DNA of 64,000 bases from Escherichia coli (GTDB lineage Bacteria; Pseudomonadota; Gammaproteobacteria; Enterobacterales; Enterobacteriaceae): assembly GCF_013315695.1 (NCBI RefSeq), contig NZ_CP054353.1; one strand, given 5' to 3'. Numbering within the stretch: position 1 is the first letter of the stretch; each line of letters starts with the position of its first letter. Below are positions 29,489-30,272 of the stretch, in pieces. The position numbers were made by a program, and so were the translations under genes. The notes under the pieces were generated by a model. It ran no database searches. It had not been told where the DNA came from and saw nothing but the letters and a program-made list of their open reading frames with translations.

Positions 29489-29496
29489 CAAATTTT
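29489..29496. repeat. IS1 target-site duplication, left copy (CAAATTTT)
   Basis: 8 bp immediately flanking the IS1 left end, identical to 30265-30272. Confidence 0.8.
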
Positions 29497-29551
29497 GGTG
29501 ATGCTGCCAACTTACTGATTTAGTGTATGATGGTGTTTTTGAGGTGCTCCA

Positions 29552-29827
29552 GTGGCTTCTGTTTCTATCAGCTGTCCCTCCTGTTCAGCTACTGACGGGG
29601 TGGTGCGTAACGGCAAAAGCACCGCCGGACATCAGCGCTATCTCTGCTCTCACTGCCGTAAAACATGGCAACTGCAGTTCACTTACACCGCTTCTCAACC
29701 CGGTACGCACCAGAAAATCATTGATATGGCCATGAATGGCGTTGGATGCCGGGCAACAGCCCGCATTATGGGCGTTGGCCTCAACACGATTTTACGTCAC
29801 TTAAAAAACTCAGGCCGCAGTCGGTAA
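29552..29827 (+). CDS. insA: IS1 InsA (transposition inhibitor / DNA-binding)
   Basis: 91 aa [42 protein letters not shown]... Confidence 0.95.
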
Positions 29828-30249
29828 CCTCGCGCATACAGCCGGGCAGTGACGTCATCGTCTGCGCGGAAATGGACGAACAGTGGGGCTATGTCGGGGC
29901 TAAATCGCGCCAGCGCTGGCTGTTTTACGCGTATGACAGGCTCCGGAAGACGGTTGTTGCGCACGTATTCGGTGAACGCACTATGGCGACGCTGGGGCGT
30001 CTTATGAGCCTGCTGTCACCCTTTGACGTGGTGATATGGATGACGGATGGCTGGCCGCTGTATGAATCCCGCCTGAAGGGAAAGCTGCACGTAATCAGCA
30101 AGCGATATACGCAGCGAATTGAGCGGCATAACCTGAATCTGAGGCAGCACCTGGCACGGCTGGGACGGAAGTCGCTGTCGTTCTCAAAATCGGTGGAGCT
30201 GCATGACAAAGTCATCGGGCATTATCTGAACATAAAACACTATCAATAA
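29746..30249 (+). CDS. insB: IS1 InsB reading frame (expressed as InsAB' transposase by -1 frameshift)
   Basis: 167-aa frame overlapping insA 3' end in the -1 frame. Confidence 0.9.
29803..29809 (+). promoter_or_regulatory. IS1 programmed -1 ribosomal frameshift motif AAAAAAC
   Basis: A6C slippery run in the insA/insB overlap. Confidence 0.7.
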
Positions 30250-30264
30250 GTTGGAGTCATTACC

Positions 30265-30272
30265 CAAATTTT
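30265..30272. repeat. IS1 target-site duplication, right copy (CAAATTTT)
   Basis: Identical to 29489-29496. Confidence 0.8.

Follow-up and report, generated by a model that had tools for sequence, protein, structure and literature searches.

Organization of the treA-operon locus

The window, by which we mean the whole stretch of 64,000 nucleotides of Escherichia coli DNA that was analysed, harbours between treA and ymgE an accessory operon of six genes, all of which are intact. Their products are a FecB/BtuF-type substrate-binding protein, a FecCD/BtuC-type permease, an ATPase, a class I SAM methyltransferase, ModD (assigned by TIGR01334 with 500 bits) and a TonB-dependent receptor. The operon corresponds to OI#55, the "prrA-modD-yc73-fepC" cluster, a known accessory island which has been described as a putative iron uptake cluster (PMC1890555; PMC12928451). 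The upstream neighbour, treA, is a pseudogene: beside the intact gene of MS 21-1, a close relative, it has lost a single base by deletion from a G/C run near 29062. The spacer between treA and the operon is AT-rich, with a GC content of 25-37% over 29300-29500, and it contains consensus-level promoter-like matches at 29374-29402 on the plus strand and at 29380-29352 on the minus strand. A complete IS1 element lies in this spacer and separates the operon from the AT-rich DNA, as a preliminary description of this DNA had claimed. That description had also placed the element 77 bp before the operon with an 8-bp target duplication, and all of these coordinates were confirmed in the sequence (Table 1). 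The 77 bp are counted from the end of IS1 to the RefSeq ATG of the first operon gene; the same end is 6 bp from a TTGACA hexamer and 29 bp from a 24-bp palindrome. The insertion has pushed the 252 bp of AT-rich spacer 776 bp away, and the right end of IS1 now stands in for the DNA from 6 bp upstream of TTGACA outward, its terminal inverted repeat occupying the former place of the operon's native upstream DNA.

Table 1. Features of the treA-operon region, with positions counted from the first nucleotide of the window
Feature	Position	Strand	Remarks
treA (periplasmic trehalase) pseudogene	27540..29236	+	RefSeq "frameshifted"; upstream neighbour
AT-rich intergenic DNA	29237..29488		separated from the operon by IS1
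Target-site duplication, left copy	29489..29496		8 bp, CAAATTTT
IS1 (IS1A type)	29497..30264	+	768 bp; orientation matches operon transcription
IRL, left terminal inverted repeat	29497..29519	+	GGTGATGCTGCCAACTTACTGAT
insA	29552..29827	+	91 aa
insB reading frame	29746..30249	+	C-terminal part of InsAB'; overlaps insA
A6C -1 frameshift motif	29803..29809	+	AAAAAAC; IS position 307
IRR, right terminal inverted repeat	30242..30264	+	IS1 ends ATCAATAAGTTGGAGTCATTACC; reverse complement GGTAATGACTCCAACTTATTGAT
Target-site duplication, right copy	30265..30272		8 bp, CAAATTTT; its final two T's open the TTGACA hexamer
Native TTGACA hexamer, candidate -35	30271..30276	+	present in empty-site alleles
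24-bp palindrome, probable ModE (molybdate-responsive) operator	30294..30317		CGCTATATG-TGTAAG-TATATAGCG; intact, downstream of IS1
Shine-Dalgarno sequence and start codon of substrate-binding protein gene	30330..30344	+	AGGA 30330-30333; ATG 30342-30344
Accessory operon, six genes	30342..36768	+	between treA and ymgE

The inserted element is an intact IS1 of the IS1A type

IS1 is among the best-characterised bacterial mobile elements, and every defining feature that could be tested was found in the copy under study, which is thus a member of the IS1 family of the IS1A type. The two terminal inverted repeats, of ~23 bp and with the GGTGATG and GGTAATG starts of IS1 ends, are inverted-complementary at 18 of 23 positions. 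A -1 shift at the A6C motif is predicted to give an uninterrupted InsAB' of 232 aa. The preliminary description had listed intact inverted repeats, insA and insB, the A6C motif and perfect flanking repeats, and each of these was verified in the sequence. When aligned with K-12 IS1A (the MG1655 copy being the reference), the element was identical at 767 of 768 nucleotides, and it has the same length, IRL and IRR, insA, insB and A6C site; the single difference, G444 in place of T, changes one residue of InsAB' (R130 vs S). The G444 variant was found also in IS1 copies of two unrelated strains. Apart from this nucleotide, what distinguishes the copy from K-12 IS1A is its genomic location. An IS1A-type element is already known in kind, and this copy is already in public annotation: RefSeq labels it "IS1-like element IS1A family transposase", notes a programmed frameshift and sets no pseudogene flag.

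The CAAATTTT repeats are perfect and adjoin both ends of IS1, for which the chance expectation is ~4^-8. A 9-bp duplication, CAAATTTTG, was excluded for a full-length IS1, as it needs three G's at the left junction, where there are two; target duplications of 8 and of 9 bp are both normal for IS1 (PMC12428005). No other IS1 copy was found in the 64-kb window, and an origin of the present arrangement by recombination between IS1 copies is not needed, there being no second copy in the window, and is argued against by the duplication.

The element had earlier been called potentially mobile, and its structure bears this out: it is structurally competent to move and potentially mobile. In K-12, all new IS1 insertions recovered at three target loci were of the IS1A/IS1E sequence type, and four divergent IS1 copies were never recovered in new insertions (PMC12428005). 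The genomes of AF3 and MSB1_4I, the two strains which carry the insertion (see below), each contain at least 40 IS1-matching pieces; the median for E. coli genomes is 11 places. This suggests that the lineage is IS1-rich.

The empty site and the age of the insertion

The preliminary description had proposed a comparison with IS1-free alleles. We reconstructed the pre-insertion sequence by removing from the window the IS1 and one copy of the repeat, and searched for it in 5426 complete E. coli genomes. The reconstruction, 1225 bp long, was found 100% identical and uninterrupted in two near-identical relatives, AF14 (NZ_OZ546925.1) and NZ_OZ546911.1, both of which carry a single-copy empty site, and many phylogroup-F-like and other strains matched it at 99.9% identity. 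Of the 2144 genomes in which a 240-bp probe with the site at its centre was present, 2142 had it uninterrupted; the remaining two were AF3 (NZ_OZ547117.1, a blood culture isolate from the UK) and MSB1_4I (NZ_LR898874.1). Exact matches to the IS1 junctions were likewise confined to these two strains (2 of the 5426 complete genomes), which share the insertion with 100% identity. Relatives having the same sequence without direct repeats, which would have spoken against a transposition event, were looked for and did not occur. By replicon, the 240-bp operon-upstream probe gave 8 matches on records classified as plasmids and 2141 on chromosomes.

As the empty site is uninterrupted in relatives and the insertion is present only in AF3 and MSB1_4I, the insertion is a genuine, derived, clade-specific transposition, an ordinary event in a small lineage of bloodstream E. 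coli. Its right-hand surroundings are hardly divergent, the adjoining 25 kb being ~100% identical across a clade of five genomes (MSB1_4I, AF3, AF14, OZ546911 and MS 21-1). Since AF3 and MSB1_4I share it at 100% identity, the insertion is old enough to be common to two separately sequenced isolates and is a stable clade marker, not a fresh event. The earlier characterisation of the element as recent is thus a relative one, the insertion being derived and absent from the closest relatives. The treA deletion is older: it is shared by the IS1-free AF14 and OZ546911, though not by MS 21-1, and hence predates the IS1 insertion.

As an IS1 insertion the event is of little importance, involving a well-known, RefSeq-annotated element in 2 of 5426 genomes. 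It can serve to mark the AF3/MSB1_4I clade, and AF14 provides its IS1-free counterpart, so that the two alleles form a natural near-isogenic pair for studying the DNA upstream of the operon promoter.

A conserved, probable ModE operator precedes the operon

The preliminary description had noted a perfect TTGACA hexamer at the junction with IS1, and the hexamer is indeed there. The empty allele has it too, hence it is native and was not created by IS1. We infer a promoter role for it from the sequence. A consensus scan calls no promoter here, and at a spacing of 16-18 nt from TTGACA there is no acceptable -10 hexamer (CGCTAT, GCTATA). A modA-like -10, TATATG, located inside the left half-site of the palindrome, was considered and set aside, as it would need a 20-nt spacer from TTGACA. 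The fixed position of the TTGAnn hexamer in orthologous loci (see below) agrees with the earlier suggestion that the insertion may have left a core promoter in place; the lack of a recognisable -10 does not.

The 24-bp palindrome downstream of TTGACA resembles an operator of the molybdate-responsive regulator ModE. The E. coli ModE consensus is ATCGNTATATA-N6-TATATANCGAT (PMC545781). In a scan allowing up to 3 mismatches, for which 0.19 chance matches were expected, the palindrome was the sole match in the 64-kb window, with 1 mismatch to CGNTATATA-N6-TATATANCG over the 24-bp core. It can be compared with the K-12 modABC operator, both being 24-bp palindromes of the form CGnTATAT-N8-AyATAnCG, which in the window reads CGCTATAT-N8-ATATAGCG. 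The geometry is similar as well: the box lies at -48 to -25 from the operon ATG, and the K-12 modA operator, CGTTATATTGTCGCCTACATAACG, at -45 to -22 from the modA ATG. The two differ in what they precede, the box of the window standing before a TonB-dependent receptor and FecCD-type ABC system with ModD and a methyltransferase, a set which the annotation calls "iron" uptake.

We compared 15 orthologous loci, comprising an E. coli-like contig, Escherichia sp. MOD1, E. albertii, Enterobacter sp. BIGb0383 and 11 Providencia. A ModE-type box was visible upstream of the gene in all 15; the strict box pattern was present in 10 of the 14 loci scanned, the rest differing at a few positions and being judged by eye. 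Just upstream of the box the orthologous loci scored have TTGAnn or TTGACT. In the Escherichia sp., E. albertii and Enterobacter orthologues TTGAnn stands exactly 17 nt before the box, and in Providencia a textbook TTGACT-17-TAATTT promoter ends ~3 nt before the box, close to the gene. Beyond the proximal ~80-90 bp conservation fades quickly. The upstream spacer is poorly conserved in E. albertii and Enterobacter; in E. albertii an additional gene separates treA from the operon, and the upstream context differs in Enterobacter and Providencia too. Within Escherichia, ~25 bp upstream of TTGA (TTAGAnAAA...) are still conserved, and it is this stretch that the insertion splits.

Taken together, the promoter and operator probably lie within the ~80-90 bp that adjoin the gene, and IS1 would have landed just outside them. 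The operon would then be controlled by ModE and molybdate. No convincing Fur box was found in the regulatory region, the best match being 13/19, and a scan of the whole window against Rfam gave nothing near the locus. Because a strongly conserved ModE-type operator is present and a good Fur box is not, the sequence suggests that molybdate, not iron, is what this TonB-dependent/ABC/ModD/methyltransferase system responds to. In the literature searched we found no paper linking ModE to the OI#55/prrA-modD-yc73-fepC cluster, and a conserved ModE-type operator in front of a putative iron-uptake cluster is of more interest than the IS1 insertion itself.

Probable effect of the insertion on the operon

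The account which we favour, and hold with considerable though not full confidence, is that IS1A transposed to a place outside a surviving promoter/operator module, with a neutral or modest effect. An intact IS1A-type element transposed into the AT-rich treA-operon spacer in the common ancestor of AF3 and MSB1_4I, at a site 6 bp upstream of TTGACA, and the 8-bp target CAAATTTT was duplicated in the process. Everything from the candidate -35 through the gene is unchanged; the palindrome and the ribosome-binding site, like the candidate -35, are left intact downstream of IS1. The operon promoter, placed within the ~80 conserved bp that adjoin the gene, would survive, and regulation by ModE and molybdate would be retained. 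IS1 is classically polar, and on this ground transcription reading through from treA would be blocked; this block and the loss of upstream modulation, if any existed, would be the main consequences. An outward hybrid promoter at the junction of IS1 and its flank was not found by consensus scan, and the TTGGAG hexamer of the IRR has no -10 partner in the flank. The net effect on operon expression is most likely neutral or modest.

The preliminary description had supposed that the insertion may have displaced an operator or upstream elements. The only recognisable operator-like sequence, the palindrome, is downstream of IS1 and untouched, which speaks against the former; against the latter, conservation of the DNA that was moved is poor past ~25 bp, in Escherichia itself as well. 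The insertion in the conserved ~25 bp may nevertheless have cost the operon a proximal upstream element.

An activation of the kind known from bgl and flhDC seems to us unlikely. Here the horizontally acquired operon would be de-silenced or up-regulated by its separation from AT-rich, H-NS-prone DNA or by an IHF/InsA-bound IS1 end, and the insertion would have been selected in a bloodstream lineage. Activation by IS1 inserted upstream of bglGFB and of flhDC is documented (PMC12428005). In the present case the element lies just upstream of a candidate -35, in DNA of 25-37% GC, adjoining an accessory island, and like the IS1/IS5 insertions at bglGFB and flhDC it stands in AT-rich DNA, where it would likewise be upstream of an otherwise intact, here putative, promoter. 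It differs from them in being closer to the core promoter, only 6 bp from the candidate -35, and in showing no recurrence at the site that would suggest selection (2 of 2144). Adding the two clonal chicken isolates which carry a different insertion (see below) to these two island-bearing genomes does not amount to an enrichment, and the absence of an outward hybrid promoter from the scan counts against activation as well. IS1 targets AT-rich DNA, and given this preference the location needs no selection.

The insertion in the chicken isolates (NZ_CP104613.1 and NZ_CP104598.1) is an independent one, of IS1B type, located at the equivalent of 29370-29378 in the window, ~119 bp further upstream than the site studied here. 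Its duplication, CAATTTGTT, is 9 bp long. This element shares its spacer and orientation with the one studied here and interrupts the promoter-like TTGTTA-17-TATATT match; the occurrence in other strains of a second element so placed is a point in favour of activation and a weak hint of selection or a hot spot as opposed to neutrality. Two independent IS1 events in the spacer among 2144 genomes are, in turn, too few to support a hot spot or selection. One may go further and regard both the IS1 and the chicken-isolate IS1B as adaptive cis-regulatory mutations which rewire a horizontally acquired, ModE/molybdate-controlled TonB-dependent uptake operon, either by cutting off an AT-rich silencer upstream or through IHF/InsA-bound IS1 ends brought next to the promoter. 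We give this idea little credence; if it were true, clinical isolates would offer, in the adaptive insertions, a natural counterpart to bgl/flhDC activation.

It is likewise improbable, in our judgement, that the insertion inactivated the operon. The true promoter or an essential activator site would in that case lie upstream of 29489, for example at the TTGTTA-17-TATATT match (29374-29402), and the polar IS1 would have disconnected it in the course of a decay of the locus. A consensus-level promoter-like match does exist upstream of the insertion, and TTGACA is without a good -10. Signs of decay can also be pointed to, namely the treA pseudogene of the clade and lesions of the operon in other strains: MS 21-1 (NZ_CP146670.1) has a G-to-A change, at the equivalent of 30754 in the window, which produces W138* in the first operon gene, that for the substrate-binding protein, and AH21E028 has an IS1 between the first two operon genes. 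W138* in MS 21-1 would fit a decay of the locus; taken with the IS1 of AH21E028 it shows sporadic independent hits on the cluster. The upstream region is, on the other hand, not conserved in E. albertii, Enterobacter and Providencia, whereas the proximal TTGA hexamer and the ModE box are, and Providencia has its compact TTGACT-17-TAATTT-box promoter beside the gene. The geometry shared with the K-12 modA operator relative to the ATG and the intactness of all six operon genes in the window likewise argue against inactivation.

A precedent for inactivation comes from K-12, where the insertion of IS1D is reported to silence gfc. IS1D sits there inside the gfcA (group 4 capsule) promoter region and resembles the window IS1 as a resident IS1 fixed in the operon promoter region of one lineage (PMC12428005). 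The insertion in the window differs from it in leaving a candidate -35, an operator and a ribosome-binding site intact downstream.

There is also a scant likelihood that the palindrome is an intrinsic terminator or attenuator hairpin, which stops read-through from treA or IS1, and that the IS1 has no transcriptional influence in either direction. A terminator scan flags 30293-30318 plus TTTTAATTAT as terminator-like, and the folded RNA forms a 10-bp hairpin (-10 kcal/mol, z = -3.6) followed by UUUUAAUUAU; but the hairpin has a weak, AT-rich stem and an interrupted U-tract, the arms are conserved in four genera as the ModE consensus (CGnTATAT...ATATAnCG) and not by free covariation, and the operon contains modD. 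The roles of operator and hairpin are not mutually exclusive, and a hairpin at this place might damp upstream read-through beside serving as the ModE-type operator of our favoured account.

Other features of the window

Away from the treA-operon region, the window contains two tandem copies of the Ldr/rdlD type I toxin-antitoxin system between chaA and kdsA, at 8326-8391 and 8861-8926 on the minus strand (Rfam RF01813, 85.9 bits each); ldr toxin genes lie at ~8439-8546 and ~8974-9081. The sRNA C0299 is found at 52933-53011 on the minus strand (Rfam RF00119, 107.7 bits). Further RefSeq pseudogenes are a leucine-rich-repeat protein gene with an internal stop at ~42084-43520 and a truncated autotransporter beta-barrel fragment at ~59742-60086.
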